Origin: an uncultured Gammaproteobacteria bacterium | GTDB taxonomy: Bacteria > Pseudomonadota > Gammaproteobacteria > HK1 | DNA: 64,000 nt | Assembly: GCA_958296085.1 (NCBI GenBank) | Contig: OY282433.1 | Coordinates: 2,960,367 to 3,024,366 of the forward strand | Reading direction: 5' to 3' | In this document: piece after piece, positions 11,703 to 28,766 of the stretch | Position numbering within the stretch: position 1 is the stretch's first letter | Layout of the letters: each line of letters begins with the position of its first letter | Translations under genes and position numbers: made by a program | Notes under the pieces: model-generated | Seen by the model: only the letters and a program-made list of their open reading frames with translations | What the model was told of the DNA's origin: nothing | The model's database searches: none

Positions 11703-11726
11703 CGTAGCGGTTCGCTCAGTACGGCG

Positions 11727-11789: not shown

Positions 11790-11796
11790 GCGGGCC

Positions 11797-12038: not shown

Positions 12039-12089
12039 CGGCCGCGCACCCGGCGGCCGGGGCGGGGCCCGTCGATCCCCGACCCGGCA

Positions 12090-13262
12090 TCAGTGCGGCG
12101 GCAGCAGCTCGCGCGCAAGCTCCACCCAGTAGGTGGCGCCGATGGGGAGGATCTCGTCGTTGAAGTCGTAGTGGGGGTTGTGGACCATGCAGCCCCCGTG
12201 CTCGCCCTCGCCGTTGCCGATCATGATGTAGTTGCCGGGGCGCTTCAGCAGCATGAAGGCGAAGTCCTCCGAGCCCATGATGCGGGCCGCTCCGGCGTCG
12301 ACGTTCTCCGCCCCCACCACCCTGGCCGCCGCCCGGGCGGCGATCGCGGTCTCCTCTTCGCCATTGACGAGGGGCGGGTAGTTCTTCTCGTACACGGCCT
12401 CGGCGGAGATGCCGCGGGCGGCGCAGATCCCGTTGACGATCCGGTCGAGGCCCGCCGCGAACTGATCGCGGACCGAATGGGTGAAAGAGCGCACCGTTCC
12501 CGCGAACTCCACCGAGTCGGGGATGACGTTGATCGCGTCGCCGCCCCGGATGCGCCCGACGGTGAACGTGGCCGCGTTCTGGGCGTTGATCTCCTGGGCG
12601 ACGAAGTCGTTCAGGGCCTCGATGATCGCGCACGCGGCGTTGACCGGGCTGCGCGCGAGATGGGGCATCGCGCCGTGGCCGCCCACGCCGTTCACGGTGA
12701 CCCGCACCGTGTCCGAGCTCGCGAGGAACGGCCCGGTGCGGGTGATGAACTTCCCGACCGGAACGGTCGGGAAGTTGTGCATCCCCCAGACCGAATCCAC
12801 CGGGAATTCGTCGAACAGGCCGTCCCGGATCATCGCGTCGGCGCCGCCCGCGCCTTCCTCCGCGGGCTGGAAGATGAAGTGGACGGTGCCGTCGAAGCCC
12901 TGGTGCGCGGCGAGGTGGCGGGCCGCGCCGAGGAGCATCGTGGTGTGGCCGTCGTGCCCGCAGCCGTGCATCCGGCCGGGATGCCGCGATGCGTGCTCGA
13001 AGGTGTTCAGCTCGTCCATCGCGAGGGCGTCCATGTCCGCGCGGAGCCCGATCGCCCCGTTGCCGGGCCCGCACCTGAGCGTCCCGACCACCCCGGTGCC
13101 CCCGAGGCCGCGCCGGATCGGGATGCCCCAGGCCGTCAGCCGCTCCGCCACCACGTCCGCGGTGCGGTGCTCCTCGTAGGCGAGCTCGGGATGGCGGTGG
13201 AGATCGCGGCGGACCCCGGTCATCTCTTCGTGGTGGGCGACGAGGTCGTCGATGAGGTTCAT
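12090..13262 (-). CDS. M20 family amidohydrolase (hippurate hydrolase / N-acyl-L-amino-acid amidohydrolase-like)
   Basis: Contains RRDLHRHPELAYEE, LRADMDAL and HGCGHDGH. I trimmed the start to ATG 13262 (MNLIDDL). Confidence 0.9.
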   Translation of the reverse strand: MNLIDDLVAHHEEMTGVRRDLHRHPELAYEEHRTADVVAERLTAWGIPIRRGLGGTGVVGTLRCGPGNGAIGLRADMDALAMDELNTFEHASRHPGRMHGCGHDGHTTMLLGAARHLAAHQGFDGTVHFIFQPAEEGAGGADAMIRDGLFDEFPVDSVWGMHNFPTVPVGKFITRTGPFLASSDTVRVTVNGVGGHGAMPHLARSPVNAACAIIEALNDFVAQEINAQNAATFTVGRIRGGDAINVIPDSVEFAGTVRSFTHSVRDQFAAGLDRIVNGICAARGISAEAVYEKNYPPLVNGEEETAIAARAAARVVGAENVDAGAARIMGSEDFAFMLLKRPGNYIMIGNGEGEHGGCMVHNPHYDFNDEILPIGATYWVELARELLPPH

Positions 13263-13490
13263 GGGAAGGCTCCTCGGTGGGCGGCGAGGTGCGGACCGTC
13301 CGGCCTCGACCGTCTGCCATGAGTGCGGGCAACCCACGCTCCGGGCGGAATTTTCCCGAGACGGGGTGCTCTCGATCCGCGGGCCGGCCCGACGAGCGGG
13401 TGGCGCCCGCGAAGAACGAACCGGCCGGATCCCGGGAAGCGTCCCGGGTCCCGGGGACCGGCCGATCGAGGAGGGTGGTGCGGCGGGGAG

Positions 13491-14681
13491 TCAGTCCGCA
13501 CGGCGGTGGCGGAGCTCCCGCATCCCCTTCTCGAGCCCCTCGACGGTGAGCGGGTACATGCGGCTCCCCATGATCTCGCGGGTCATCTCGATCGACTGGG
13601 TGTAGCCCCAGATGTTCTCCGGCTTCGGGTTGAGCCAGATCGCGAAGGGCCAGGCGTCGAGCACGCGGCCCATCCACACCGCCCCCGCCTCCTCGTTCCA
13701 GTGCTCGACGCTTCCCCCGGGATAGGCGATCTCGTAGGGGCTCATGCTCGCGTCGCCGACGAAGATCGCCTTGTGCTCCGCGTTGTACTTGTGGAGGACG
13801 TCCATCGTCGGGATGCGCACGGAGTGGCGGCGCCGGTTGTCCTTCCACACCGTCTCGTAGACGAAGTTGTGGAAGTAGAAATACTCCAGGTGCTTGAACT
13901 CCCCGCGCGCGGCGGAGAAGAGCTCCTCGCACACCTTGACGTGGTCGTCCATCGAGCCGCCGACGTCGAGGAACAGCAGCACCTTCACCGCGTTGTGCCG
14001 CTCCGGGACCATGCGGATGTCGAGCAGGCCGCCGTTGCGGGCCGTCGAGCGAACGGTGTCGTCGAGGTCGAGCTCCTCCTCCGCTCCCTCGCGCGCAAAG
14101 CGTCGGAGCTTCCTGAGGGCCACCTTCATGTTCCGGGTTCCGAGCTCCACCGTATCGTCGAAGTTCTTGAACTCCCGGCGATCCCAGACCTTGACGGCGC
14201 GCCGGTGGCGCGACTCGTGCTGCCCGATGCGCACCCCCTCGGGGTTGTAGCCATAGGCTCCGAACGGCGACTTCCCGGCCGTCCCGATCCACTTGTTGCC
14301 GCCCTGGTGGCGCCCCTTCTGCTCCTCGAGGCGCTTCCGGAGCTCCTCCATCAGCTTGTCGAAGCCGCCCATCGCCTCGATGAGCGCCTTCTCTTCCTCG
14401 CTGAGCCGGAGCTCCGCCTGCCGGCGAAGCCACTCCTCCGGGATCTCTCCGTGCAGCGCGTCGAACAGCTCCTCCATTCCCTTGAAGTACGTCCCGAAGC
14501 ATTGATCGAAGCGGTCGAAATGCCGCTCGTCCTTCACGAGGGCGGCCCGCGCGAGGTAGTAGAAGTCGTCCACGCTCAGCATGGCGACCCGGCGCTCGAG
14601 GGCTTCGAGCAGGGTCAGGTACTCGGTGATCGCGACCGGTACGTGGTACCGGCGAAGGCCGAAGAAGAAGTCAACCAGCAT
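13491..14681 (-). CDS. VWA domain protein (CoxE-like), partner of the MoxR ATPase
   Basis: Has a MIDAS-like LLFLDVGGSMDD motif, is 396 aa, and its start overlaps the stop of the upstream MoxR gene by 11 nt. Confidence 0.8.
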   Translation of the reverse strand: MLVDFFFGLRRYHVPVAITEYLTLLEALERRVAMLSVDDFYYLARAALVKDERHFDRFDQCFGTYFKGMEELFDALHGEIPEEWLRRQAELRLSEEEKALIEAMGGFDKLMEELRKRLEEQKGRHQGGNKWIGTAGKSPFGAYGYNPEGVRIGQHESRHRRAVKVWDRREFKNFDDTVELGTRNMKVALRKLRRFAREGAEEELDLDDTVRSTARNGGLLDIRMVPERHNAVKVLLFLDVGGSMDDHVKVCEELFSAARGEFKHLEYFYFHNFVYETVWKDNRRRHSVRIPTMDVLHKYNAEHKAIFVGDASMSPYEIAYPGGSVEHWNEEAGAVWMGRVLDAWPFAIWLNPKPENIWGYTQSIEMTREIMGSRMYPLTVEGLEKGMRELRHRRAD

Positions 14682-15525
14682 TGCGGCGGTGCAGGAAGGC
14701 GAGCCGCTCGAAGAGGTGCACGTCCTGCTCGTTCTTGAGGAGGGCGCCGTAGAGCGGCGGGATGGCCTCGCGGGCGTCCTTGCTGCGCAGCGTCTCGGGC
14801 GGGATGTCCTCCGCGACGAGCAGCTTGATCCAGTCGAGGAGCTCCGAGGTCGAGGGCTTCTTCTTGAGCCCCGGCACTTCGCGCATCTCGAAGAAGGTCT
14901 CCAGCGACTCCTTGAGCAGGTCCTTCTTGAGGTCCGGGAAGTGGACCCCGACGATGCGGGTCATCGTCTCGGTGTCCGGGAACCGGATGTAGTGGAAGAA
15001 GCAGCGGCGCAGGAACGCGTCCGGCAGCTCCTTCTCGTTGTTGCTGGTGATGATGATGACGGGCCGGTGGATCGCGGTGATCGTCTCCTTCGTCTCGTAG
15101 ACGTAGAACTCCATGCGGTCGAGCTCCTGGAGGAGGTCGTTCGGGAACTCGATGTCCGCCTTGTCGATCTCGTCGATGAGAAGGACCGGGCGCGTCTCGG
15201 AGGCGAAGGCTTCCCAGAGCTTTCCCTGGACGATGTAGTTGCGGATGTCGTGGACCCGGCCGTCGCCGAGCTGCGAGTCGCGCAGGCGCGCCACCGCATC
15301 GTACTCGTAGAGCCCCTGGCTCGCCTTCGTGATCGACTTGATGTGCCACTGGATGAGGGGGGCGCCGATCGCGCGCGCCACCTCCTCGGCGAGCATGGTC
15401 TTGCCCGTGCCGGGCTCTCCCTTGATGAGCAACGGCCGCTCGAGGGTGATGGCGGCGTTCACCGCGAGCATCAGGTCTTCGGTGGCGATGTAGGTATCGG
15501 TACCTTCGAATCTTCCCTGCGGCAT
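14671..15525 (-). CDS. MoxR-family AAA+ ATPase
   Basis: Walker A is GEPGTGKT and Walker B is VLLIDEIDKA, and SNNEKELPDAFLRRC is also present. I trimmed the start to ATG 15525 (MPQGRF). Confidence 0.9.
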   Translation of the reverse strand: MPQGRFEGTDTYIATEDLMLAVNAAITLERPLLIKGEPGTGKTMLAEEVARAIGAPLIQWHIKSITKASQGLYEYDAVARLRDSQLGDGRVHDIRNYIVQGKLWEAFASETRPVLLIDEIDKADIEFPNDLLQELDRMEFYVYETKETITAIHRPVIIITSNNEKELPDAFLRRCFFHYIRFPDTETMTRIVGVHFPDLKKDLLKESLETFFEMREVPGLKKKPSTSELLDWIKLLVAEDIPPETLRSKDAREAIPPLYGALLKNEQDVHLFERLAFLHRRNAG

Positions 15526-15619
15526 CGGGCAATCTTCTCCGTGGGGGCGAGCGGGTCGGCGACAGTGTAGACGATCGAAGTTGCCGGTCCGGAGCGGCGG
15601 GTGGGGTAGAATCCGCGCG

Positions 15620-16618
15620 ATGCACGCCCGCGCGACCATCGGCGGCCGGGAAGCCGGCGCCCTCCCGGGGGAGGAGTTCGAGATGCAGGCCGAAACGGTC
15701 GAGATCGAGGCGCCCGATCTCGCGCCCTGGCGGGAGGGAAGCGCCGGCGTCGACTACGCGCACACTCTCGAGAGCGGCCGGCCGGGGCCCCACGTCATGG
15801 TGAGCGCCGTGGTGCACGGCAACGAGCTCTGCGGCGCGATCGTGCTCGACGAGCTGCTGCGGGCGGAAGTCCGCCCCGCGCGCGGCCGGCTCACCCTCGC
15901 GTTCATGAACGTCGAAGCCTGCGAACGCTTCGATCCCGAGCACCCCGTCCTCAGCCGCTACGTGGACGAGGACTTCAACCGCCTGTGGTCGAGCGAGGTG
16001 CTGGGGGGCCGGCGCGACAGCGTGGAGCTCCGGCGCGCGAGGGCGCTCAGGCCGATCCTCGACGAGGTCGACTACCTGCTCGACCTCCACTCGATGCAGT
16101 ACTCGGCGGCGCCGCTCGCGCTCTGCGGCGCCACTCGCAAGGGGCGGGACTTCGCCCGCGCGCTCGGGTTGTCCGCCCACATCGTGCGCGACGCCGGCCA
16201 CGCGGCGGGGCCGCGGATGCGGGACTACGCCGCGTTCGCGGACGATGAGAGCCCTCGCGCCGCGCTGCTCGTCGAGTGCGGCCAGCACTGGAAGCGCGAG
16301 ACGGTGGAGACGGCGCGAAGGGTCGCGTTCCGGTTCCTCGACCACTTCGGGGTCCGGCTGCCGGAGCCGCCCCCGCCGGTGGACGGGGCGGCGGCAAGGC
16401 TCATCGAGGTCACCTCGCCGGTCACGGTGCGAAGCCACCGATTCCGCTTCACCCTGCCGTACCGGGGCATGGAGGTCATCGAGAAGGCGGGGACCGTCAT
16501 CGGGTACGATGGCGACGCTGCGGTCGCCACCCCCTACGATGACTGCGTGCTCATCATGCCCACCCACCGGGCGAGCCGCGGCACCACCGCGGTCCGCCTC
16601 GGGCGCTTCGTCGGATAG
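15620..16618 (+). CDS. succinylglutamate desuccinylase/aspartoacylase (AstE/AspA, M14-like) family protein
   Basis: Contains VVHGNELCG (zinc ligand context) and DLHSM. The start is uncertain, with in-frame candidates at 15581, 15620 and 15683. Confidence 0.7.
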   Translation: MHARATIGGREAGALPGEEFEMQAETVEIEAPDLAPWREGSAGVDYAHTLESGRPGPHVMVSAVVHGNELCGAIVLDELLRAEVRPARGRLTLAFMNVEACERFDPEHPVLSRYVDEDFNRLWSSEVLGGRRDSVELRRARALRPILDEVDYLLDLHSMQYSAAPLALCGATRKGRDFARALGLSAHIVRDAGHAAGPRMRDYAAFADDESPRAALLVECGQHWKRETVETARRVAFRFLDHFGVRLPEPPPPVDGAAARLIEVTSPVTVRSHRFRFTLPYRGMEVIEKAGTVIGYDGDAAVATPYDDCVLIMPTHRASRGTTAVRLGRFVG

Positions 16619-16689
16619 CTGGTCCCAACCGGGATGGCGCGGCTGGCGGCCATGCAAGGGAAATCTCCAACGGTCTCGAACGGCAAGCA

Positions 16690-19539
16690 ATGGGAGCTGA
16701 TCTGATCCAGGCACGTTCGTCCGATCTACCGAACAGGTTCGATCATCTGTTCGCGCAGGCGACTACGCACTGTCCACACGACTACCAAAAGCGGCTCGCA
16801 TGCGGCGAACGTCATGAGCGTCACCATATTGACTGGCTGAGCGGTAGCCGTACATGCGAGTCGATGCTCATCGACGTTCCCACCGGTTTCGGGAAGACCG
16901 GCGCGGTAGTGCTGGCTTGGCTGTGGAACCGCGTCTTGAGACACCGGGACGATTGGCCGCGCCGCCTCGTCTACTGCCTGCCCATGCGAACGCTCGTCGA
17001 ACAGACCCTTCAGGATGCAAGACAATGGTTGAGGAGACTCGGGCTCTCGGATGAAGTCGGCCTTCACGTGCTCATGGGAGGAGAAGATACCGGCGAATGG
17101 GACATCCAGGTGGAACGGAACGCCGTGCTGGTGGGCACGCAGGACATGTTTCTTTCCAGAGCCCTCAACCGTGGTTATGGGATGAGCCGATATCGCTGGC
17201 CGATGCATTTCGGGCTTCTCAACAACGATTGCCTGTGGATCATGGACGAAGTGCAATTGATGGGGCCGGGGCTCTGGACGTCGGCGCAACTGGACTGGAT
17301 GAGGAATGATCGCTTCAAGAGTCTGAAACCCTGCTCGACGTGGTGGATGAGCGCGACGATTCGCCCGAAGTTTCTTGAGATGATTGATCGAAAGAACGCG
17401 AAATTGCACAGACCTGAATGCATAAATCTGAAAGAGCGCGATCAGAACCACGAGATTCTCCAGGCGCGTCGCCCATGCAAGCTATGGAAGCCTCCGGTCT
17501 CGGCGCGAAAGACGCGCAAGAAGGAGTCTACCGACGACAAGCTGTCGGCATTCGTACAGGCGCTGGCCGAGGCCGTGACCGGTGAGCACCATGAGGCGAG
17601 TCTGAGCCTTGTCGTCTGCAACACCGTTACCGTCGCGCAACAGGTCTACGCAGCTATCAGAGACATTTACATCGATGCCTCTGATGTTGCTCTTCTGACC
17701 TCGCGTTTCCGGGCCAGGGATCGCGAAGAGAATCAAGGCAGGCTTCTGGCTTTCGAAGCAGCCCGCAAACGCGCCGTGACGGACGGGACCGTCTCGGTCA
17801 CAGGACTCATTTGCGTGTCTACGCAAGTGATCGAGGCGGGCATAGACGTATCGGCGCGGCGGTTGTGGTCGGAAGTCGCCCCTTGGCCGTCGGCAATTCA
17901 GCGTCTCGGACGCCTGAATCGGGACGGACGACTGAATGGAGATGCCTGTGCCTGTTTCTGGGAAGGACCGGAGAAACCGAAACGGGGCGCACGGTTCATC
18001 GGCCCCTATGAAGCCGATGCGGTAAAGCGTGGACACGAACTCGTCACTGCGTTGGTCGCGGTATACGAATCCGATGACACACTGCCCGCGATGGAAGCCT
18101 TGGCAAGGCTGAGTACACGAGACGAAACCAGGGATATGGTCGAGAAGGCACTGACTCCCGCCCCCGAACCGTGCCCGAGGGCCATCGATGTGCATGGGCT
18201 CTTTTCGACGGAGCCGGATGTCTTCGGAGGCTTCACCGACGTGAGTTCATTCGTCCGAAGTCAGGATGAGAATGCCGACGTGACGGTCTTCTGGCGTGTG
18301 TGGCGTTCCGACGCCGAGTTGCGACGTTCGGAGGCGTTGACCGGGCCGGCATTTGCTCAGGACGAAGGGTGCGCCGTGCCCGCCGGCAGATTACGGGATT
18401 TCTTGGAGAACCGGAAGGCCTGGATCTGGGACGACAAGAGCGAAGCGTGGGAGTCGGTTCGCGCTCGGGATATCCGTCCCGGCATGTTGGTGATGCTGCG
18501 GCGCGACGACGGGGGATACTCGCGTGATCTGGGTTGGACGGGGAGCAAGACCGATCAATTGGATGATGTGTCGCCACCGGGAGAACCGTACGAGAGGTTC
18601 GAGGACGACCGATACAGCGAGAGCGGAATCTGGGTCACGTTGACAGACCATCTGAAGGACACCGAGCGGGAAGCGGAACGCATCGTCCGGGCCGTGAACC
18701 TGGATGGCGATGTTGGCTTGGCAGTCATTCACGCATCATCGGAACACGACATCGGCAAGGCGCTGTCGCAGTGGCAGTACGAGCTGCCGAAGCCGCCACC
18801 GCAAGAGGGCTGCGTATGGGCCAAGGCGCCGTATCAGTTCGCGGTTATCGCAGATGGGTCCGAAGCGGTACGGGAAACCGAGGTCATCCTTCTCACGAGC
18901 GGCTTGCGGCATAGCCAAGCCGACCCGTGGGGACAGGAGATGGCGGACGGCCGGATCCGGTTCACGTGGCACATGGACTCAAAGGTGCCTCGTGCAGCAC
19001 TCGAACACATCCGTGCCGCGCCGCGCATCGTGCGCACGTGGAACGTCCCTTTCCGGCCCGGTCTTCGTCATGAGGCGGCGACGGCCCTCGCGCTGTGGCA
19101 TAGCTACTATCAAGGGAAGAACGCGGACTTCCCGGCGCTGTCGATTTATCTCTGCGCCGCGCATCACGGCAAGGTGCGGACGGTTCTCACGTCTCGAACC
19201 GCGACCGGCGAGGACGTGTGTGGGATACCGAAGACCACTGCATCGCTTCCGTGGAACGACATGCCCTTGGACTTCGCGTGTGCGGTCGATGGAGCGTCGG
19301 GGTGCTTCTCGGACGACGGGCAGACGTTCCTCTTCGCAGCGCCCGGCTGGACAGGGCTCGTTGCCGACCTGCTTGGCGCATGGGAGCACGATGCGGTGCC
19401 GGGCGTGAGCGGTGCCGTGGCGGATGGTGAGCCGCGCGATCTTGGACCGTTCGCGCTGGCCTATCTTGAGACGCTGGTTCGTTGCGCCGATGAGCGGGCG
19501 AGCAAGACACCCGGCGCCGGCAGGGGAACAGGTTCGTGA
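16690..19539 (+). CDS. cas3: Cas3-like SF2 helicase with C-terminal HD nuclease domain (type I-G/I-U architecture)
   Basis: Helicase motifs are DVPTGFGKTGAV (I), IMDEVQLM (II), WWMSAT (III) and QRLGRLNR (VI). The C-terminal HD motifs are LTDHLKD, EHDIGKA, RHEAATALALW and AAHHGKVR. Confidence 0.85.
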   Translation: MGADLIQARSSDLPNRFDHLFAQATTHCPHDYQKRLACGERHERHHIDWLSGSRTCESMLIDVPTGFGKTGAVVLAWLWNRVLRHRDDWPRRLVYCLPMRTLVEQTLQDARQWLRRLGLSDEVGLHVLMGGEDTGEWDIQVERNAVLVGTQDMFLSRALNRGYGMSRYRWPMHFGLLNNDCLWIMDEVQLMGPGLWTSAQLDWMRNDRFKSLKPCSTWWMSATIRPKFLEMIDRKNAKLHRPECINLKERDQNHEILQARRPCKLWKPPVSARKTRKKESTDDKLSAFVQALAEAVTGEHHEASLSLVVCNTVTVAQQVYAAIRDIYIDASDVALLTSRFRARDREENQGRLLAFEAARKRAVTDGTVSVTGLICVSTQVIEAGIDVSARRLWSEVAPWPSAIQRLGRLNRDGRLNGDACACFWEGPEKPKRGARFIGPYEADAVKRGHELVTALVAVYESDDTLPAMEALARLSTRDETRDMVEKALTPAPEPCPRAIDVHGLFSTEPDVFGGFTDVSSFVRSQDENADVTVFWRVWRSDAELRRSEALTGPAFAQDEGCAVPAGRLRDFLENRKAWIWDDKSEAWESVRARDIRPGMLVMLRRDDGGYSRDLGWTGSKTDQLDDVSPPGEPYERFEDDRYSESGIWVTLTDHLKDTEREAERIVRAVNLDGDVGLAVIHASSEHDIGKALSQWQYELPKPPPQEGCVWAKAPYQFAVIADGSEAVRETEVILLTSGLRHSQADPWGQEMADGRIRFTWHMDSKVPRAALEHIRAAPRIVRTWNVPFRPGLRHEAATALALWHSYYQGKNADFPALSIYLCAAHHGKVRTVLTSRTATGEDVCGIPKTTASLPWNDMPLDFACAVDGASGCFSDDGQTFLFAAPGWTGLVADLLGAWEHDAVPGVSGAVADGEPRDLGPFALAYLETLVRCADERASKTPGAGRGTGS

Positions 19540-21626
19540 ACAGTCTGCCCGTCGTACCGTTCAAGGGACTGAACGCGGATTCGCTCGGCGCCTATCTGGC
19601 AGCGCTTGGGTTGTTCTCACTTGTTGCCCGGAAGTGGCCGGGCGTCCGTGCATGTTGGCGGAACGCGGGTTTTTGCCTGGTTGGTGGTCCCATTGCATTG
19701 GATGAGATTGTAGAGTTCGTGAGCAAGATTGGCGAGAGGAACGCTTGGACCCGATACGACAAGCCCTGGGACGAGGACAAGAAGGCGGATGTAGACAAGA
19801 AAACGTCGACGCGGACCGCGCGTTGGCGTGCCTTGGGAGCGGAAGAGCGATCACTACCTGCCTTCGGGGCGCATCTGGCCCTCGACGGCCGGGTGAGGAT
19901 GAATCCCCTGCTCGGCACCGGGGGAAACGCCGGTCAACGAAAGTTCGATAGAGGTTGGCGCAAAGCTGTCACCTGCATTGAGACACCGCCTCGCGGCCAG
20001 AGCAGAGAGTCACTCAAAGCGGATATCGAGGCATTCCTTGATGGAAACTCATGTGCCTACCTCGGCGATTTCAGTGCAGGATCATGGTTCGGGACGGCGA
20101 ACAGGATTTACAACCACGGCACAAGGCGATCTTTTCGCGAAGGAGAAATTACGCCTTGGGCGATGGCACTGGCGTGTGAGGGCTTGCCCTATTTTTCAGG
20201 CGGCGTTTCCCGGCGATTGGGCAGTCGCCGTCAACCCAAGGGCGCCTTCCCGTTCATTACCGCGGCAATGGCGCCGCAGGGCGCGGACGAAGCAGGCAGT
20301 ATAGAAGCCGAGGTCTGGGCTCCGCTCTGGGATCAACCTGTGACAGGGCCTGAGCTCCGATCCTTGTTCCTGCGCGGGAGAGCGGAGCTCGGTGGAAGGG
20401 GGGCGACTTCCTCTGCGGAGTTTGCTGTTGGAGTAACGAACCGTGGTGTCGATGCTGGAATATCGGAATTCCGACGATTTCTGCTTCTGCATACGACCAG
20501 TGTACAGACATTCGAGTCCCGGTTGGCAACCGTCGTTCCGGTTCCGAAGACGAACCTGGACGGTGCAACCTCACGAGCGATTTGGACCATTGTCGAGTTT
20601 CACGATACGTTGCCGGAGGATCGGAAGGTCCGCAATCGATGGAGATTTGCCGGTTTGCGTGGCCCGCTCGAACAAGCGCTTGTTGACTTTGCCGCCGCGG
20701 AACCGGGTGCGGCAGGCACCGAGCAAGCTTGGGCACTGGTTGACGAAATGTTCGAAGCGCTTGTCAAGATTGATCGGAATCGGACGTTTCGCAGCCACAA
20801 TGTACGATTCCAATTGTTGCCAGGCGAGTGGGCAGCGAGGTTGTTTCATGAAGATCCACCCGACCGGGAAACCCGTTTGGCGCTGGCGTTGTCCTCACTT
20901 GCAGGGACGAGGTTCTGCCCGCCGTTCATTGCACACCGCATCGGCGTGCAGAAGGGGATGATCGGATCACGCTGGGATTTTCCCGAGTCTCCCCCGGCTC
21001 GCCGTGTCTGGAGCGATGCCGGGCTGACCGACAATCTATGTGCGACGGCGGAACGACGCACCATGGAAGCATTGCAGAAGGCGGCGGTGCGACCGCCGTT
21101 CGGCTCTACCATCCGAGTGTGCCTCGACGATCTGCATTCCTGGTTGTCCGGCGACGTGGACGAGGAGCGACTGAGCCTATGGCTGGATCGTCTCCGTATG
21201 TTCGACTGGAGCGGCGGAGCAAACCGCGAGGCCGAGGCCGCGAAGGAGTTGCAGCGTGGTTTCCCTCGCACTCGACCGCCCGTTGACGGCATGTTGGCGC
21301 TCTACGCATTGTTCCGCCCGCTTGCGAGTGATTGGCTGTTCCGCCAAGTTCTTCACGAGAGCGGCATTCGAGCCGAGAGAACATCGACATGCGCCTGGCT
21401 CGGCCGCGTCATCGCGATGCTGAGGCGCGGGGACGTGAATGCCGCGGCGGAGGTGGCGCTGGCGGCATACCGCTCTGCCGGCGTGGCACTTGCCGATTTC
21501 AATGTGTTCCCCGATGTGTCTGACCCGGACCGCCTGCTGGCAGCGCTGGTCATCCCGGCTCGTGATGAACAGACTCTTGCCGCTTTCCGGTGCTGGCGAA
21601 CGCCAACCGAACCTAATGAACAATGA
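19536..21626 (+). CDS. csx17: Csx17 / Cas8u(g)-like large subunit
   Basis: 696 aa; its GTG start overlaps the cas3 stop (GTGA). The N-terminus (GLNADSLGAYLAALGLFSLVA..WPGVRACW) resembles Csx17 as I recall it. Its position between cas3 and csb1 also fits. Confidence 0.65.
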   Translation: MNSLPVVPFKGLNADSLGAYLAALGLFSLVARKWPGVRACWRNAGFCLVGGPIALDEIVEFVSKIGERNAWTRYDKPWDEDKKADVDKKTSTRTARWRALGAEERSLPAFGAHLALDGRVRMNPLLGTGGNAGQRKFDRGWRKAVTCIETPPRGQSRESLKADIEAFLDGNSCAYLGDFSAGSWFGTANRIYNHGTRRSFREGEITPWAMALACEGLPYFSGGVSRRLGSRRQPKGAFPFITAAMAPQGADEAGSIEAEVWAPLWDQPVTGPELRSLFLRGRAELGGRGATSSAEFAVGVTNRGVDAGISEFRRFLLLHTTSVQTFESRLATVVPVPKTNLDGATSRAIWTIVEFHDTLPEDRKVRNRWRFAGLRGPLEQALVDFAAAEPGAAGTEQAWALVDEMFEALVKIDRNRTFRSHNVRFQLLPGEWAARLFHEDPPDRETRLALALSSLAGTRFCPPFIAHRIGVQKGMIGSRWDFPESPPARRVWSDAGLTDNLCATAERRTMEALQKAAVRPPFGSTIRVCLDDLHSWLSGDVDEERLSLWLDRLRMFDWSGGANREAEAAKELQRGFPRTRPPVDGMLALYALFRPLASDWLFRQVLHESGIRAERTSTCAWLGRVIAMLRRGDVNAAAEVALAAYRSAGVALADFNVFPDVSDPDRLLAALVIPARDEQTLAAFRCWRTPTEPNEQ

Positions 21627-21638
21627 GGGAGATACCCC

Positions 21639-22739
21639 ATGTCCGATCATCCGCTCGATCCATCCACTCTATTGAATGGCGAGGCTCCGCGTCTGACACT
21701 TCATGCGAATCTCAAGCCGGCCTCGGGTCTGGATCGATTTCAACCTGCGGGTTTCCCCGAGATCGGTCACGTCATTTACGATGCGCCTCGTCCCGACAAC
21801 AGTGTGCAGAAGGTCTGCATCGTGGACAGCGCGGCCAGCATGGCGAATCATCTTGAGACGGTGTGCCTGGCCAGCGAACACTCTCTGGATTTGGTGGATG
21901 AACTGACGGGAATGCCCTATGTCGAATGCCGGACGGACGATGGCTGGCCAGATGTTACTGAAGACACTACAGGGCCGAAGAGGCTCGTCGTCACGACGCT
22001 CTCGGAAGGGCATCGGTTGGCTTCGACCTACTTTCTCAACGGAAGGCTTGTAAAGAACAGTAAACCGAATGAACGCAGGTTTGGCGACCTACTCCGAGCC
22101 GAATTCGGAATTCCTGATCTCGGCAAGAAATCCCATCCACTTCCCGCTCAGTGGTGGACCGTCTTTACGACGATCTTCCGCTACGATCCCAATTCACTCG
22201 TTCACGGGGTGCTCTTCCCGGCCATGGGGATCAAGCTGCCGAGAATGCTGACAGCGCATCTCGAAGCGTTTGGCGTCTCCCGAGTCCGCAGCTCCGGCGT
22301 CAAGTTCGACAAGCTCGGAAAGACATCGTCGGGACAACCGATCTTCTCCGTTGACGAGGAAACTGCCAGCGAAATCGTTGCGACCTTCGTCATCGACTTG
22401 GCACTGCTTCGGTCGTTTGGTCGAGAGGATCGGGGCCTGAACGGTGCGCAGAAGGAATTCCTTCTGGCTCTCGCGCTGTGGAAAATCGAGAGTCTCCTGC
22501 GAGGGCCGTTCCGCTATAGAAGCAATTGCGACCTTGAACTGGACGAACTACGCGTTCATGGTCGCGAAGAGCCTGTCGATCTGCCGGACATCGACATCAA
22601 GTCGGTTGTCGGAAAAGCAGGATTCTGCGATTCGCCTGTGACACAGGTTTACTGGCCCGCGAATGATCTGTTCCGGGCCGGGGCGGATGAACAGGAGGAA
22701 GGCTCCGACTCCGACGACGAACAAGATGCCCAGGGGTGA
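21639..22739 (+). CDS. csb1: Csb1 / Cas7u(g)-like backbone subunit
   Basis: 366 aa. The blocks RFQPAGFPEIG and VDSAASMANHLE match my recollection of the Csb1 family. GAGGGA lies 8 nt upstream of the ATG. Confidence 0.75.
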   Translation: MSDHPLDPSTLLNGEAPRLTLHANLKPASGLDRFQPAGFPEIGHVIYDAPRPDNSVQKVCIVDSAASMANHLETVCLASEHSLDLVDELTGMPYVECRTDDGWPDVTEDTTGPKRLVVTTLSEGHRLASTYFLNGRLVKNSKPNERRFGDLLRAEFGIPDLGKKSHPLPAQWWTVFTTIFRYDPNSLVHGVLFPAMGIKLPRMLTAHLEAFGVSRVRSSGVKFDKLGKTSSGQPIFSVDEETASEIVATFVIDLALLRSFGREDRGLNGAQKEFLLALALWKIESLLRGPFRYRSNCDLELDELRVHGREEPVDLPDIDIKSVVGKAGFCDSPVTQVYWPANDLFRAGADEQEEGSDSDDEQDAQG

Positions 22740-22751
22740 CGAGTCGTTACG

Positions 22752-24308
22752 ATGGAAGTGGTTCTCAGACAGACATTCCCGCATGGGCGGTTCCATGCCA
22801 ATCCATGGCGCATGTTCCCGTTCGAGGATCCCCACGGGGAGTGGCCACCCAGCCCGTGGAGGCTGCTTCGCGCCATTCTGGCGAGATCCCACCAATTGGA
22901 AAGGGAACGTGGCGTCCAGTGCCATCCATGGCGTGACTCGCTGGTCGGAGCGTTTTGTACAAGTACATTCGGTTGGTGTCTACCGTCGCTCAGTTGGCGA
23001 GGTCCGGGGCTACGACAATACCAGCCAGCAACGTTCGAGTGGGATCCGCCTGGCCGAACGAAGAAGGTGAAAGGCCGGTCCGTGAACATCCCGGGCGAGA
23101 GGAAATATCGATCCACCTTGGTACGCGACAATTTCTGGGTAGTCGGCAAATCTGCAACCGACTCGTGCTCCAGCATCGTATGGTGGATCCTGGACGGTGA
23201 GCGGTGGTTCGAGCACGAGCTGGATCGGCTCGATGCCTGTTTGGATCGCATGACCTACTTCGGACGTGCCGAGGCGATCACCGAAATTCAGCGTGTCGAA
23301 AAGCTGCCGAAGGACACCCATGTGAACTGCGTATTGGAGCAAGACCCCTCGTCGGGTTCCGTTCCGGTGCTTGTCCCGACGGAAGACGCCACTCTGGAGC
23401 AGGTGCAGGCGATCACGGACGATCCGTCGGTCGCGAACTCGACCTTACCTCCCGGAGCTCGCTGGCTGCACGCCAAGCGGCCCACCAGAACGCGGGTGAA
23501 GCTGCCGCGTTCAAACCCACGAACGAGAAAATCGACACGCTTTATTCAGTTTGCGATCGGCGCACGAGTCAGCCCCCCGAGAAAATCCATCGTCGTCCTT
23601 ACCCAACGGTTTCGAGGGCGGGTGATTCGCGAATTCCTTGGAGGGAGCTGGCAACAGGCGAATACGGAACGGCGAGAAGCGGCACGTCTCCTCACCGGAA
23701 AAGAAGCCGATGGCACACCGCTGCAAGACCACCAGCATCCACATGCCCGATTCGGGATTCTCTTCGACCACGAGACCGGCAGAGCGGCAAGGCTTCTCGT
23801 ATGGCGCAACCAATCATTTACGGACGGTGAACAACGCGCCATCTTGAACGCAGCCGAGCAGGAACTCCCTTTCTCCTTCGTCAGGGTTGGAACAAGGGAT
23901 CCGTGGACCGTGCGGCTCGTGCCTCTGGATTCGCAAGTACCTTCTCCGGCCGGTTTCGGAGAACGGACCTATCGACGCTGGAAGACTGTTACGCCCTATG
24001 TCCCACCGCGTCATGCGTATGACCGGAAAGGCCGGATAAAGGCAGGAGAATCACCCGAAGAGCAACTCCGCTTCGATCTGGCTCGGCAGGGATACGATAC
24101 GAACGGTCTGACGATCGAACTGGATGATCGAGCTGTCGAGTGGACGCGAGTGCATAGACCACAACGGCATCGAGATGACGCGACGAATACGGAAAGGCGT
24201 GGATATCAGGGATCGCTTACGTTCGATATGCCCGTCCGCGGCCCAATATCACTCGGCCACTCGTCGCACTTTGGCCTTGGGCTATTTGTGGCGGATGCCT
24301 CCGAGTAG
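22752..24308 (+). CDS. csb2: Csb2 / Cas5-Cas6 fusion-like subunit
   Basis: 518 aa. The N-terminal GRFHANPW..EWPPSPWRLLRAILAR block is characteristic of Csb2, and it is the last gene of the operon. Confidence 0.75.
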   Translation: MEVVLRQTFPHGRFHANPWRMFPFEDPHGEWPPSPWRLLRAILARSHQLERERGVQCHPWRDSLVGAFCTSTFGWCLPSLSWRGPGLRQYQPATFEWDPPGRTKKVKGRSVNIPGERKYRSTLVRDNFWVVGKSATDSCSSIVWWILDGERWFEHELDRLDACLDRMTYFGRAEAITEIQRVEKLPKDTHVNCVLEQDPSSGSVPVLVPTEDATLEQVQAITDDPSVANSTLPPGARWLHAKRPTRTRVKLPRSNPRTRKSTRFIQFAIGARVSPPRKSIVVLTQRFRGRVIREFLGGSWQQANTERREAARLLTGKEADGTPLQDHQHPHARFGILFDHETGRAARLLVWRNQSFTDGEQRAILNAAEQELPFSFVRVGTRDPWTVRLVPLDSQVPSPAGFGERTYRRWKTVTPYVPPRHAYDRKGRIKAGESPEEQLRFDLARQGYDTNGLTIELDDRAVEWTRVHRPQRHRDDATNTERRGYQGSLTFDMPVRGPISLGHSSHFGLGLFVADASE

Positions 24309-24506
24309 ACGACACGGAAGTCTTGAACTCGATCCTTTGGGTCTGACGAATCCGCATGGCAGAACATCTCGACACGGCAGACGAGTTCATTTCCTGCACC
24401 GTTGTAGTCATTTCTCCGACAGGAGCGCGGGGTATTCCGCTGCTTCGATCTCGGCCGCCAGTCGGCGGTTCAGCGCGTGTGCGGTCCCTCCCGGAGGGAG
24501 GAGGGG

Positions 24507-25661
24507 TCAGAGGACGGCGCGGACGTCGCGCCGGTCGCGGTGCTCCTCGATGGCGAGCCGGATGAGCCGGTCGATGAGCTCGGAGTAGGGGATCCCGCTC
24601 GCCTCCCACAGCTTCGGATACATGCTGATCGGGGTGAACCCCGGCATGGTGTTCACCTCGTTCACATGGATCCGCCGTTCGTCGCCCCGCTCGACGAAGA
24701 AGTCCACGCGAGCGAGGCCGCGCGCCTCCACGGCCCGGAACGCGGCCACGGCGAGCTCCCGGACCCGCTCGGCCGTCTCCGGGGGGAGGGGAGCGGGGAT
24801 GACGAGCTCGGACGCTTCGTCCACGTACTTCGCGTCGTAGTCGTAGAACTCGCGGCTCGGCACGATCTCGCCTACGACCGACGCCCGCGGATCGTCGTTG
24901 CCGAGGACCGCGCACTCGATCTCGTGGCAGTCGATCGCCGCCGCCTCGATGAGCACCTTGGTGTCGTAGGCGGCGGCGTCCTCGACGAGGCCAGGAAACG
25001 AGCTGGCGTCGTCGATCCGGTGGACGCCGACGCTCGAACCGAGGTTCGCGGGCTTGACGAACATCGGGTAGCCGAGGCGCGCTTCCGCCTCGGCCCGGAC
25101 GCGGTCCGGCTCGCGTCGCCACTGCGAGCGGCGGACCACGGCGTAGTCCATCATCGGGAGCCCTTCCGCCCGGAACGCGCGCTTCATCATCGCCTTGTCC
25201 ATGGCCGCGGCGGAGCCGACGACTCCCGCCCCGACGTAGGGGAGCCCGGCCAGCTCGAGGAGCCCTTGCACGGTGCCGTCCTCGCCGAAGGGGCCGTGCA
25301 GCAGCGGGAAGACCACGTCGAGGCTCGCGGCGGCAAGCGCGGTGGAGCCGCCCGCGCCTCGGGCGAGGAGGCGGCCCCCGTCGGGGTATCCCACCAGGAC
25401 CGGGAGCGTATCGCCCGCGCCGCGGCCGCTCAGGATCGGAGGGGGATCCCCGCGCTCTCCGCCCGCCGGGTCCTCCGTGAGCCGAGCCGGGGCCTCCGGA
25501 GCGGGAAGGCGCCACTCGCCGTCCTTCGCGATGTGGATGAGGGTGAGGTCGTACTGCGTGCGGTCGATCGCCGCGAACACCGAGCGGGCGGAGGAGAGGG
25601 AGACCTCATGCTCACAGGAACGGCCGCCGAAGACGAGCCCGACCCGGATCTTGCGCGACAT
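24507..25661 (-). CDS. ddl: D-alanine--D-alanine ligase
   Basis: Contains RVGLVFGGRSCEHEVSL, an ATP-grasp body and EVNTMPGFT; 384 aa. Confidence 0.95.
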   Translation of the reverse strand: MSRKIRVGLVFGGRSCEHEVSLSSARSVFAAIDRTQYDLTLIHIAKDGEWRLPAPEAPARLTEDPAGGERGDPPPILSGRGAGDTLPVLVGYPDGGRLLARGAGGSTALAAASLDVVFPLLHGPFGEDGTVQGLLELAGLPYVGAGVVGSAAAMDKAMMKRAFRAEGLPMMDYAVVRRSQWRREPDRVRAEAEARLGYPMFVKPANLGSSVGVHRIDDASSFPGLVEDAAAYDTKVLIEAAAIDCHEIECAVLGNDDPRASVVGEIVPSREFYDYDAKYVDEASELVIPAPLPPETAERVRELAVAAFRAVEARGLARVDFFVERGDERRIHVNEVNTMPGFTPISMYPKLWEASGIPYSELIDRLIRLAIEEHRDRRDVRAVL

Positions 25662-25669
25662 TCGGCTAG

Positions 25670-26836
25670 GGAAGGTCTGATCTAACGGCCATTTGAAGGC
25701 CGGTGGCCGCCCAGAGCGGTTTTCGGCGGAATTTCACGCTCGGGAGCGGGGAATCGACCGATTCGGGGGCACCTGGCGCCCGTTTCGACGCCTTCCAAGC
25801 ACACGGGCGCCGCAGTCACGCCGCCAAGCTCCGCTCGGCGATCAGCAGATTGGCAAAGCCCAGCAGCAGCGCGATCCGCTGCCCGTTCTTGTGCAGGCCC
25901 CGGTAGCGCACCTTGCCGTACCCGAACACCCGCTTCACGTAGAAGAACGGGTGCTCCGCCTTGGCCCGGACTGACGCCTTGTTCTTCTCGCGCCGCGCCT
26001 CCTCGCCGTCCGCCGCCAACCGTCGTCGAAGACCCGGCCGCATCGCCACCCGCCACTCCACGTCCCGGCCACGGTTCTCCGGGCGCTTCTCCACGCCCTG
26101 ATAGCCCGCATCGCCCCACACCACCTTCTCCTCCCCATGCACCAGCCGGTGCGCGTGCGCCACGTCCGACTCGTTCGCCGGCGTCGCCGTGAAGCTGTGG
26201 GCCACCCCCGTCTGCGCGTCCGACCCAACGTGCATCTTCATCCCGAAGTACCACTGCTTCCCCTTCCTCGTCTGATGCATCTCCGGGTCCCGCTTCCCAG
26301 CCCGGTTCTTCGTCGAGGACGGCGCCTCCACGATGCTCGCATCCACCACCGTGCCCTCTCGAAGCGTCAGACCCCGCGACGCCAGACAATCGTTGATCGA
26401 CGCCATCAGCCGCTCCCCGAGCCCGTACTTCTCCAGCAGGTGTCGGAACTTCAGGATCGTCGTCTCGTCCGGCAGTGCGTCCAGTGTCAACCCCGCGAAA
26501 CGACGCACCGGCTCCACTTCGTAGAGCATGTCCTCCATCCCCGGATCGCTCAGGTTGTAGAACAACTGAACGCAATGCACCCGCAGCATCGCCGACAGCG
26601 GGTACGGACGACGACCGCGGCCCGACCCCTTCGGATAGTGCGGCTCGATCACGTCCTCCAACTCCTTCCACGGAATCAGACCGTCCATCCGCTCCAGGAA
26701 CTTCTCCCGCCGCGTCTTCTTCTTCTTCGCCCCGTACTCCAGCTCCGCGAACGTCGCCTGAATCCCCATCGCCCCCTCGCTCCCAATCCCCATTTCCTCT
26801 ATTGTCCCACCATCACGGGACTAAATCAGAGGTTCC
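25670..26836 (-). mobile_element. intact IS5-family insertion sequence (1167 bp) with 4-bp CTAG target duplication
   Basis: The ends are GGAAGGTCTGATCTAAC (25670-) and the reverse complement GGAACCTCTGATTTAGT (-26836), matching in about 12 of 17 positions. CTAG flanks both sides (25666-25669 and 26837-26840). The element has a single transposase ORF. Confidence 0.85.
25816..26769 (-). CDS. IS5-family DDE transposase
   Basis: The match to the E. coli IS5 transposase, as I remember it, is close. Shared blocks are FAELEY..KKKKTRREKFL, RRPYPLSAMLRVHCVQLFYNLSD, VDASIVEAPSSTKN, DPEMHQTRKGKQWYFGMKMHVG and ADAGYQG. I trimmed the start to ATG 26769. Confidence 0.9.
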   Translation of the reverse strand: MGIQATFAELEYGAKKKKTRREKFLERMDGLIPWKELEDVIEPHYPKGSGRGRRPYPLSAMLRVHCVQLFYNLSDPGMEDMLYEVEPVRRFAGLTLDALPDETTILKFRHLLEKYGLGERLMASINDCLASRGLTLREGTVVDASIVEAPSSTKNRAGKRDPEMHQTRKGKQWYFGMKMHVGSDAQTGVAHSFTATPANESDVAHAHRLVHGEEKVVWGDAGYQGVEKRPENRGRDVEWRVAMRPGLRRRLAADGEEARREKNKASVRAKAEHPFFYVKRVFGYGKVRYRGLHKNGQRIALLLGFANLLIAERSLAA

Positions 26837-26963
26837 CTAGTATAGGCCGTCCCGCGCCGGCTCGTTCGGCCGGGCCTCATGCAACCGTCCCGCGACCACC
26901 CCGAGGAGGCCGTTCCTTGGCAGTGTGCACATGCCGACGACCGCCGCCGGAGGCGGGTGAGCC

Positions 26964-28766
26964 ATGAGGGCGGGAGGCACGCGCGCGCGCCTCGCCCGCC
27001 TCCGCGACGCGATGCGCGAGCACGAGATCGCGGCCTACCTCGTGCCGTCGAGCGATCCGCACCAGAGCGAGTACGTGCCCGAACACTGGGCGCGCCGGCA
27101 GTGGATGAGCGGGTTCACGGGCTCGGCCGGCGAGCTCGTCGTGGGGCTGGAGGGGGGGGGGCTCTGGACCGACGGGCGCTATCACCTCCAGGCCCGGCAA
27201 CAGCTCCGGGGCAGCGGCCTCAAGCTGTTCCCGGTCGGGGACCGGGACGTGCCCACCCTCGAAGAGCATCTCGCGAAGACGCTCCCGCGCGGGGCCGCCG
27301 TCGGTGTGGACCCGGCGGTCGTCAGCATGAAGCGCACCCGCAGGATCGCCAGGAAATTCGCGCCCGCCGGGGTGACTTTGAAGCCCATCGACGAGAACCT
27401 CGTGGATGCGGTGCGCGGGCCGGTGCCGGGGCGGCGCGCCCGCGCGCCCGTCGCGCCCCTTCCCACCCGCTTCTCGGGCGAGTCGAGCGCGTCCCGGCTG
27501 CGGCGGGTGCGCCGCGCCATGCGCGGGCGCAAGGCGGATGCCCTCGTCGTCACCACCCTCGACGCGATCGCCTGGCTGTTCAACGTGCGGGGCTCCGACG
27601 TCGCCTACAACCCGGTGGTCATCGCGTACGCGGTGGTGACCCCGGACGAAGCGGTCCTGCACGTCGACCGGGGCAAGCTGGACGCGGCGGCGGAGGCCCA
27701 TCTTCGCCGCACCGTCCGGATCGAGCCCTACGCCGGCATCCGCCGCACCCTGCGCGGTCTCGGGCGCCGCAAGGCGGCGGTGTGGATCGACCCGGAGACG
27801 ACGAGCCTCATGTGCGCGCGCCACCTGGAGGGGGCGAAGCCGATCCTCGCGCCGTCGCCGATCCCCCGCATGAAGGCGCGCAAGAACGCGGTGGAGCTCG
27901 CCGGCATCCGCGCCGCCCACCGGCGCGACGGGGCGGTCATGGTGCGCTTCCTCCACTGGCTGGAGCGGTCCGTGCCGGCGGGCGGGGTCACCGAGATGAG
28001 CGCCGCCGCGAAGCTCGACGGCCTGCGCGCCGCGGGCGAGCGCTTCCGGGGGTTGAGCTTCCCGACGATCGCGGGGTACGCCGACCACGGGGCCATCATC
28101 CACTACTCGGTGGACGAGGCGAGCGACATTCCCCTCCGCCCGGAGGGGCTCTTCCTCGTGGACTCGGGGGGGCACTACCTCGACGGCACGACCGACGTTA
28201 CCCGCACCCTGCTCCTCGGCGGGCGGCCCACCGACGCGCAGCGCGACAGCTATACCCGGGTGCTCAAGGGGCACATCGCGATCGCCACCGCGCGCTTTCC
28301 CGCCGGCACGACCGGGGCGCGGCTCGATACCCTCGCCCGCGCCGCGCTCTGGCAGTCGGGCCGGGACTACCCGCACGGGACCGGGCACGGCGTGGGCGCC
28401 TTCCTCAACGTGCACGAGGGGCCGCAGTCGATCAGCCACCGCTCGACCGAGGTGCCGCTCGAGCCCGGCAACATCCAGTCGAACGAGCCCGGCTACTACG
28501 AGCCCGGCGCGTTCGGCATCCGCATCGAGAACCTGGTGGAGGTCGTCAAGGACGAGGCCATCGCGCCGCGCGACTTCCTGCGCTTCGACACCCTGACCCT
28601 GTGTCCGATCGAGAAGCGGCTCGTCGACCCCGAGCTGCTGTCCGCGGGCGAGCGCGGGTGGCTCGATGCGTATCACGCGCGGGTTCTGGACACCCTCGGC
28701 CCCGACCTCGACGGGGACGAACGGGCTTGGCTGGAGGGAGCGTGCGCGCCTCTCGAGGTCTCCTGA
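26964..28766 (+). CDS. pepP: Xaa-Pro aminopeptidase (M24B, aminopeptidase P family)
   Basis: 600 aa. It has a creatinase-like N-terminal region and the M24 metal-ligand blocks (DSGGHYLDGTTDVTRT, HGTGHGVG, SNEPGYY). Confidence 0.85.
   Translation: MRAGGTRARLARLRDAMREHEIAAYLVPSSDPHQSEYVPEHWARRQWMSGFTGSAGELVVGLEGGGLWTDGRYHLQARQQLRGSGLKLFPVGDRDVPTLEEHLAKTLPRGAAVGVDPAVVSMKRTRRIARKFAPAGVTLKPIDENLVDAVRGPVPGRRARAPVAPLPTRFSGESSASRLRRVRRAMRGRKADALVVTTLDAIAWLFNVRGSDVAYNPVVIAYAVVTPDEAVLHVDRGKLDAAAEAHLRRTVRIEPYAGIRRTLRGLGRRKAAVWIDPETTSLMCARHLEGAKPILAPSPIPRMKARKNAVELAGIRAAHRRDGAVMVRFLHWLERSVPAGGVTEMSAAAKLDGLRAAGERFRGLSFPTIAGYADHGAIIHYSVDEASDIPLRPEGLFLVDSGGHYLDGTTDVTRTLLLGGRPTDAQRDSYTRVLKGHIAIATARFPAGTTGARLDTLARAALWQSGRDYPHGTGHGVGAFLNVHEGPQSISHRSTEVPLEPGNIQSNEPGYYEPGAFGIRIENLVEVVKDEAIAPRDFLRFDTLTLCPIEKRLVDPELLSAGERGWLDAYHARVLDTLGPDLDGDERAWLEGACAPLEVS

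Follow-up and report, generated by a model that had tools for sequence, protein, structure and literature searches.

How can a complete set of CRISPR (short palindromic repeats, clustered and regularly interspaced) interference genes serve a genome when neither a repeat array nor adaptation genes accompany it? The question is raised by a four-gene operon of type I-G (cas3g, cas8g, cas7g, and csb2) in a stretch of 64,000 nt from the chromosome of an uncultured gammaproteobacterium, hereafter called the window (the term refers to the whole stretch and not to the operon, and coordinates are positions in it unless another locus is named). A cassette with neither array nor adaptation genes would be workable only with CRISPR RNAs (crRNAs) from elsewhere. 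The answer that we find the most probable, at somewhat better than an even chance, is that it is an ordinary and intact type I-G interference module using crRNAs supplied in trans. The evidence is strong for the identity of the cassette and for the behavior of the clade to which it belongs, and inferential for the window's own genome.

The family assignments were judged against the curated cut-offs of NCBIfam, which all four proteins exceed. Cas3g matches TIGR02621 with 612.8 bits (cut-off 400), Cas8g1/Csx17 matches TIGR04113 with 334.6 bits (cut-off 150) over residues 87–690, Csb1/Cas7g matches TIGR02570 with 48.2 bits (cut-off 38) and PF09617 with 93.3 bits (cut-off 25), and Csb2 matches TIGR02165 with 120.2 bits (cut-off 45). 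The names given by PADLOC agree with NCBIfam for all four genes (693 bits for Cas3g, 129.8 bits for Cas7g, and 209.9 bits for Cas56g in the case of Csb2); Pfam alone recognizes neither the Cas8g nor the Csb2 protein. The N-terminal ~90 residues of Cas8g fall outside the TIGR04113 match and bear a weak likeness, below the cut-off, to the "Cas3-extension family" NF049934 (29 bits). The genes are closely packed, as cas8g has its GTG start on the stop codon of cas3g (a 4-nt GTGA overlap at 19536–19539), and 12-nt gaps separate cas8g from cas7g and cas7g from csb2. The features of the type I-G interference module (Cas3g, Cas8g/Csx17, Cas7g/Csb1, and the Cas5-Cas6 fusion Csb2) are all present in the operon. 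The canonical type I-G systems of Thioalkalivibrio sulfidiphilus and Geobacter sulfurreducens (formerly I-U; PMC9638904) have the same four interference genes in the same order, and resemble it also in the C-terminal HD domain of Cas3g and in a Csb2 fusion with a C-terminal catalytic histidine. An initial annotation, made from the sequence, had described four tightly packed co-directional genes with this overlap and these gaps, a superfamily 2 (SF2) helicase with a C-terminal HD domain keeping its motifs, proteins of the Csx17, Csb1, and Csb2 families, an astE-like gene upstream, and a convergent ddl downstream. The open reading frames (ORFs) are exactly as it gave them, and the profile searches, including Pfam matches for both flanking genes, bear out its identifications. 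A scan for sigma-70 promoters and terminators gave counts at the level of shuffled sequences.

The proteins show every mark of being intact. In Cas3g, the helicase occupies residues 57–417 and the HD domain residues ~645–940. An alignment shows that motif I (PTGFGKT), motif II (DEVQ), and motif VI (QRLGRLNR) of the helicase are invariant in nine of nine orthologues, and so are the HD motifs, all of which are there (DH653-654, HD686-687, H794, HH825-826, and D934). In Csb2, the C-terminus GPIxLGHSSHFGLGLF is invariant in nine orthologues, and in 47 homologues, the least similar at 48% identity, the Cas6-like C-terminal motif G502-x-S504-x-H506-F-G508-L-G510 does not vary. The invariant C-terminal histidine among these 47 is H506, and H503 varies. 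The catalytic residue for crRNA processing in the T. sulfidiphilus protein is its C-terminal histidine H503 (Shangguan et al., PMC9638904), of which H506 is likely the counterpart. The AlphaFold model of Csb2 (mean predicted local distance difference test score 78.5) matches the Cas6 and Cas6b structures 3pkm and 4z7k with probability 1.00, and Cas6b 4z7k is also the best structural match reported in PMC9638904; a sequence search detected no solved structure of an I-G Csb2. The initial annotation had proposed looking for the Cas6-like residues in such a model, which has the Cas6 fold and carries the motif at H506 rather than at H503. The ratio of nonsynonymous to synonymous substitution rates (dN/dS) lies between 0.09 and 0.33 for all four genes in each pair tested, including the pair formed by the window and the related locus L001, both of which lack a local array. 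With these values, selection on the genes of the cassette is purifying. The catalytic and helicase motifs are invariant alike in array-bearing and in array-less orthologues, and nothing in the comparison of the proteins suggests inactivation or neofunctionalization.

The absence of an array from the window is equally clear. The repeats detected by Tandem Repeats Finder are all coding ones (84-, 129-, and 189-nt periods), a search of the window with Rfam gives zero matches, and two scans for interspaced repeats return only the 84-nt coding repeat. The 3′ handle of the repeats of the clade, GGCCTCATTGAAG, is missing from the window even with two mismatches tolerated. A scan for the handle plus a hairpin finds three weak matches (three mismatches each) in the window, where 8.7 are expected from shuffles; the same scan recovers essentially all the repeats in four control arrays. 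It was used in place of a covariance model because the repeats occur in two stem registers that the aligner could not reconcile. There is in the 64 kb neither an array of 36-nt hairpin repeats ending in ATTGAAGC nor any solitary repeat. Likewise, the window gives no match when Cas4g/Cas1g and Cas2 from close relatives serve as tblastn queries, and no second cas locus is visible in it. All these searches agree with the initial annotation, which had reported no array, no tandem repeats other than those of the three periods, and no cas4-cas1 fusion or cas2 after csb2. An 11-nt repeat with two copies (24310 and 24370) in the 198-nt spacer after csb2 was judged to be due to chance.

The relatives of the cassette show how often this arrangement occurs. 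A scan with one genome per species gave eight loci (L001 to L008) whose Cas8g is 64–85% identical to that of the window, in Gammaproteobacteria, Ca. Azophilus, Dehalococcoidia, Vicinamibacterales, Pseudomonadales, Binatia, and Rhodothermales. The order of the four genes is identical in all eight, and the proteins of the window are 64–89% identical to those of complete canonical I-G loci. The operon of the window ends at csb2, whereas those of the close relatives L002, L008, and L046 continue with cas4g/cas1g, cas2, and 36-nt repeats giving ATTGAAGC: L002 is a canonical complete locus with more than 50 repeats, L046 is complete with 28 repeats, and in L008 the contig ends after cas4g/cas1g and cas2. 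In L007, the array is upstream and two insertion sequence (IS) transposases lie between it and cas3g. In the other five (L001, L003, L004, L005, and L006), the nearest 7–10 kb hold neither an array nor an adaptation gene; L005, L009, and L017 are from one organism. The records are OY282378.1 for L001, CBDHCU010000009.1 for L003, OZ241898.1 for L004, WLWT01 for L005, and OZ219754.1 for L007, and L045 belongs to a bin of ERZ19489113. If the window and L045, a locus at the same chromosomal site (see below), are taken as a single context, stand-alone cassettes make up 6 of the 10 genomic contexts in the close clade, all with complete ORFs. Among distant I-G loci (20–50% identity and at least 2 kb of downstream sequence), cas4/cas1 is found directly 3′ of csb2 in 14 of 15. 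In the protein trees, the array-less loci are interleaved with the array-linked ones, L002 pairing with L004 and L007 with L006. Hence, the stand-alone state is not one derived lineage. The survey of close relatives that the initial annotation had recommended shows that the array-less layout is common among them and mixed with complete loci.

When the window is compared with L001–L008 by blastn, homology is restricted to positions 16660–24292, that is, to the four genes and ~30 nt upstream. No gene or non-coding element is conserved beside the four cas genes among the relatives compared, and a cluster of flanking genes seemingly common to L001, L004, and L005 consists in fact of unrelated ABC-transporter ATPases. 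Scans of metagenome and viral contigs with single-sequence peptide patterns gave no relatives, and an alignment-based repeat of the scan found relatives in metagenomes and none in viral contigs. No match to Cas8g was found by tblastn in plasmid and phage collections, and there is therefore no evidence for a plasmid- or phage-borne cassette. Two weak periodic signals near stand-alone cassettes were taken up as candidate arrays and rejected. The one in L004 consists of isolated two-copy repeats only, and the one in L006 is a 27-nt coding repeat, of which a long run (L006 positions 1–2136, minus strand) is mistaken for an array by a loose CRISPR scan; a period of this length would suit nonapeptide repeats. 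Downstream of the stand-alone cassette of L005, an identical 36-nt hairpin-containing element, GGGTAAAACGCGTGTGTTTACGTTACCCATTGCACC, occurs twice on the minus strand ~1.9 kb apart (19827 and 21755, equivalent to 16587 and 18515 of L009). It matches the I-G handle only at the limit of three mismatches and probably represents some unrelated repeat or a mobile element's ends.

For one of the stand-alone cassettes, the array can be located. On the chromosome of L006 (3,650,170 bp), the effector operon, whose module is 70–81% identical to that of the window and locally array-less, is at ~2.600–2.622 Mb. At ~1.385–1.407 Mb one finds cas4g/cas1g-cas2 followed by ~101 cognate repeats ATTTTCCCCCGCTTTTTGCGGGGGCCTCATTGAAGC, ~1.2 Mb from the effectors; the Cas4g/Cas1g homologue there (P0038) is 78% identical to the Cas4g/Cas1g of the clade. 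L006 is thus a demonstrated split I-G locus, with effectors and array on the same chromosome. Less extreme separations also exist. The effector genes of L041 and its array run convergently, with ~9 kb of transposase, PIN, and ATPase genes between them. In L042, inserted genes take up ~6 kb and the gene order is another one, csb2 preceding cas3; L040 is contiguous.

The repeats themselves suggest that arrays could serve effectors other than their neighbors. The repeats of 14 I-G arrays are alike, being 36 nt long, with a stem rich in GC and with CC[T/C]CATTGAAGC as the handle. Cleavage in I-G takes place 4 nt 3′ of the repeat stem (PMC9638904), which would leave an 8-nt handle, ATTGAAGC, that is nearly invariant in the 14 arrays, those beside effectors merely 24–34% identical to those of the window included. 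Because the handle is so constant, even in the arrays of distant effectors, I-G arrays are probably cross-compatible between effector variants. L040 (positions 2207–12193) and L042 (positions 1–12131) have a Cas4g/Cas1g 80–83% identical to that of the clade and repeats with the GGCCTCATTGAAG handle, together with effectors only 24–34% identical to those of the window. This pairing of adaptation modules close to those of the clade with distant effectors indicates that effector modules and adaptation-plus-array modules of I-G systems are exchanged independently. A gene with AAA-ATPase_like (PF09820) and PDDEXK_9 (PF08011) domains stands beside three of the four I-G loci of the clade for which there are gene calls (L041, 14110–15657 and 18839–20536; L042, 8753–9903; L046, 749–2296). 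In L046 it adjoins a WYL-domain regulator just upstream of cas3g, and these genes may represent an accessory or regulatory association with I-G loci.

By analogy with L006, we infer that a compatible array may lie elsewhere on the window's own 5.09-Mb chromosome and would supply crRNAs in trans. Csb2 would cut the 36-nt repeats of this remote array, leaving the 8-nt ATTGAAGC handle; Cas8g, several copies of Cas7g, and Csb2 would assemble on the crRNA into a Cascade able to find matching DNA, and Cas3g would then unwind and shred the DNA so matched. The initial annotation had raised the possibility of an effector module with a remote array, and the comparative evidence fits it, since L006 is split over 1.2 Mb from an array of ~100 repeats.

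Such an arrangement has precedents. Distant cas clusters and arrays acting in trans are recognized (PMC7145637), and ~12% of type I cas loci are isolated (PMC5294841). As in the window, these clusters have an intact interference operon more than 10–20 kb from any array, the I-F system of Zymomonas mobilis with its remote arrays being an example (PMC7145637; PMC5294841). They differ from the I-G clade in that the stand-alone state is far commoner in the latter (6 of 10 contexts) and in that its adaptation genes stay with the array and not with the effectors. The remote array of the window is conjectural in comparison, and it is L006 that provides an I-G example. The crRNA-borrowing variants (type III-G, III-B with I-F arrays, and type IV; PMC12669027, PMC5576922) resemble the window in being effector modules without array or adaptation genes of their own, which would recruit crRNAs from other loci, but they are distinct subtypes with signature changes, such as new subunits and lost or replaced nucleases, and the window shows no signature change. 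The Tn7-associated I-F3 and I-B CRISPR-associated transposons, nuclease-deficient derivatives of type I, also have Cascade genes without adaptation genes. They have no Cas3, and a short array and genes for transposition are linked to them; in the window, Cas3g is intact and transposition genes are absent. The 2025 update of the classification notes missing arrays or adaptation modules for III-G, III-H, and VII, and the parts of it consulted do not mention I-G (PMC12669027).

The history of the insertion bears on how the absence of an array is to be read. The features concerned are listed in Table 1.

Table 1. Position of the type I-G cassette and its surroundings in the window
Feature	Coordinates	Strand	Description
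AstE/AspA-like housekeeping gene, upstream flank	15581..16618	+	PF24827 57.7 bits; outside the system; syntenic in L043, L044, L045
Strain-specific insert	16619..24510		Cassette with 71-nt upstream spacer and ~200-nt downstream spacer, delimited by the stop codons of the astE-like gene and of ddl
5′ stretch of ~30 nt before cas3g	16660..16689	+	Ribosome-binding region or 5′ leader; conserved with relatives (blastn against L001-L008), in none of which similarity starts further upstream
cas3g	16690..19539	+	949 aa; N-terminal SF2 helicase fused to C-terminal HD nuclease
cas8g (csx17)	19536..21626	+	696 aa; large subunit; GTG start
cas7g (csb1)	21639..22739	+	366 aa; Cascade backbone subunit
csb2	22752..24308	+	518 aa; Cas5-Cas6 fusion
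ddl, D-alanine-D-alanine ligase, downstream flank	24507..25661	-	PF07478 240 bits, PF01820 111 bits; convergent with the operon; outside the system; syntenic in L043, L044, L045

Three contigs cover the same chromosomal region. L043 is 98–99% identical to the window over 7446–16618 and 24511–34478, and at the site of the insert it has no cas cassette and 850 bp (L043 positions 9605–10454) with a 74-aa ORF and a PIN-domain gene, which form a VapBC-like toxin-antitoxin pair. In L044, the flanks of which are 87–92% identical, ddl adjoins the astE-like gene with a gap of ~109 nt, and the site is empty. L045, from the same metagenome as L043, has the cassette at the same site, fully intact and with a Csb2 94% identical, and no array or adaptation genes within 10 kb of it. 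The synonymous divergence (dS) between the window and L045 is 0.32–0.49 for the flanking genes and only 0.035 for cas3g and 0.085 for csb2. As the dS of the cassette is far below that of the flanks, its exchange postdates the divergence of the hosts by a good margin; recombination through the conserved flanks is the presumable route. By these comparisons, the cassette is a strain-level insertion, horizontally acquired between the convergent astE-like and ddl genes, and its intact presence at the same site in a second lineage, with low dS, indicates recent spread. Its composition differs from that of its surroundings (58–63% guanine plus cytosine [GC] in the operon versus ~67–74% in the flanks). 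No integrase, transposase, terminal inverted repeats, or target-site duplication was found at the boundaries of the insert. The ddl/astE-like intergenic site, the content of which changes between strains, is a hotspot for small accessory modules.

Cas8g departs from the rest of the cassette in its N-terminal part. Residues ~61–200 are 64–76% identical to those of all clade members, and the remainder is 91–93% identical to L045 and L001. In the comparison with L045, the dS of cas8g is 0.6–2.4 in codons 1–200 (positions 19536–20135) and 0.07–0.22 elsewhere, and the window protein is without an 11-residue insertion common to L045 and L001. The N-terminal segment of Cas8g is a fast-diverging recombination mosaic.

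Several other elements of the window vary between strains or are repeated. A second strain-variable island, with a GC content of 0.60–0.65, extends over 32562–41027; L044 has ~840 bp in its place, and the L043 contig ends at its edge (34478). It codes for an AAA ATPase (34650–35852), a 964-aa AAA_16/STAND-like NTPase with TPR repeats (35813–38707), within the gene of which the 129-nt tandem repeat is found, and an AAA_14-DUF4143 ATPase (39500–40681), and it may be a defence island. A dispersed intergenic repeat of ~75–110 nt with GCGCTCCCAGGGAG-type units is present at 8326–8413 and 42632–42742 of the window, and also in L043 (18652–18764) and L044 (1414–1497, 3730–3801, 5854–5939, and 19304–19352); it looks like a repetitive extragenic palindrome or a miniature inverted-repeat transposable element. 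The region 44618–46987, at ~72–75% GC, has very long overlapping ORFs on both strands, and inside them lie long tandem repeats (189/90- and 84/252-nt periods, as many as 9.8 copies, 87–92% matches).

The reading that the window holds an ordinary module served in trans has to be weighed against three points. First, the 64 kb that were read directly of the window's own genome yielded neither an array nor an adaptation gene. Second, among 120 representative Cas4g/Cas1g homologues (at least ~74% identity to the fusion protein of the clade) and the listed members of 20 of their clusters, none is on the chromosome of the window (5,089,713 bp) or on those of its near relative (5,069,126 bp), of L001, or of L004, and among the matches listed there is none for L003, L005, or L007 either. 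This check, which covers the matches listed, placed only L006, L002, and L008 and is blind to arrays without an adjacent cas1. Third, the cassette is a recent arrival, as shown by the strain with nearly identical flanks that is without it, and its intactness in the window is therefore no proof of selection in this host.

These same points are what one would expect of an orphan recently transferred into a genome without a compatible array, intact because it is young, idle now, and bound to decay or be lost. This is a serious rival, to which we give an appreciable probability, clearly smaller than that of action in trans. It draws on the toxin-antitoxin pair that takes the place of the cassette in L043, on an exchange more recent than the divergence of the hosts, on the lack of any clade Cas4g/Cas1g placed on the window's chromosome among the homologues listed, and on the lack of array, solitary repeat, and adaptation gene in the 64 kb; cas clusters without CRISPRs have moreover been argued to be costly and transient (Bernheim et al., PMC7145637). 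However, L045 keeps the same cassette, undamaged, at the site where the window has it, and stand-alone cassettes in 6 of 10 contexts and in several phyla, with complete ORFs and dN/dS of 0.1–0.3, are hard to square with general uselessness. A large remote array exists in at least one stand-alone genome, that of L006.

A special case of action in trans is that of an exchangeable interference module plugged into the arrays and adaptation genes of another resident I-G variant, or of another subtype with an ATTGAA-type handle. It would diversify interference, for example by allowing escape from anti-CRISPRs or by altering the preference for protospacer adjacent motifs. The shuffling of modules seen in L040 and L042, which combine near-clade Cas4g/Cas1g and the same handle with divergent effectors, is in line with this, as are the mosaic and fast-evolving N-terminal segment of Cas8g and the documented loci with one adaptation module and several interference modules (PMC7145637). 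Yet there is no second cas locus in the 64 kb, and a fit of Csb2 to foreign repeats is so far a prediction; we regard this version as improbable.

More radical readings dispense with the array altogether. Effector-only cassettes might circulate across phyla in such a way that some hosts, possibly including that of the window, have no array at all and the cassette is nevertheless selected, Cascade and Cas3 working guide-independently or with a non-canonical RNA. This we hold to be very improbable. A shade less probable still is the alternative suggested by the initial annotation, that Cascade and Cas3 have been domesticated to work without an array; the function would then be guide-independent or outside defence. 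All that speaks for it is that an array and adaptation genes are locally missing and that this state is so frequent in the clade. One would expect such a derivative to bear some of the hallmarks of known derived CRISPR variants, and these are all missing. The nuclease and helicase motifs are intact and invariant, selection on the genes is purifying, and there is no variation either in the Cas6-like catalytic motif, for which crRNA processing is the only use. The array-less loci do not form a group of their own in the trees, the cassette brings along no new partner gene or RNA that is conserved, and one member of the clade, L006, coexists with an array of ~100 repeats. The suggestion of domestication is, in sum, unsupported. 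Finally, a misjoining of the cassette to the chromosome during assembly or binning, with its array left on another contig, is conceivable in what is apparently a metagenome-assembled genome, arrays often breaking assemblies, but it has next to no probability here. The independent assembly L045 shows the same junctions of astE-like gene, cassette, and ddl, and the sequence of the window runs on unbroken for 16.7 kb upstream and 39.7 kb downstream of the cassette, in the same order as L043 and L044 on either side.

Under the preferred reading, that of an intact module using crRNAs supplied in trans, the locus is an I-G interference module of the textbook kind, its layout atypical yet recognized, and it does not change the understanding of the I-G mechanism. 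It would be far more interesting if the source chromosome were truly array-free. What the comparison brings out is that the four effector genes of this clade behave as a precisely bounded, horizontally exchanged cassette, which is usually apart from the adaptation-plus-array module and is hosted by Gammaproteobacteria, Acidobacteriota, Chloroflexota, Binatia, Rhodothermales, and the uncultured host of the window. Conversely, near-identical adaptation and array modules are paired with very different I-G effector modules. This pattern supports a modular evolution of I-G systems, in which effectors would be swapped or added against a conserved 8-nt crRNA handle, and the clade supplies concrete genomes in which the use of arrays in trans, over megabase distances, can be studied.

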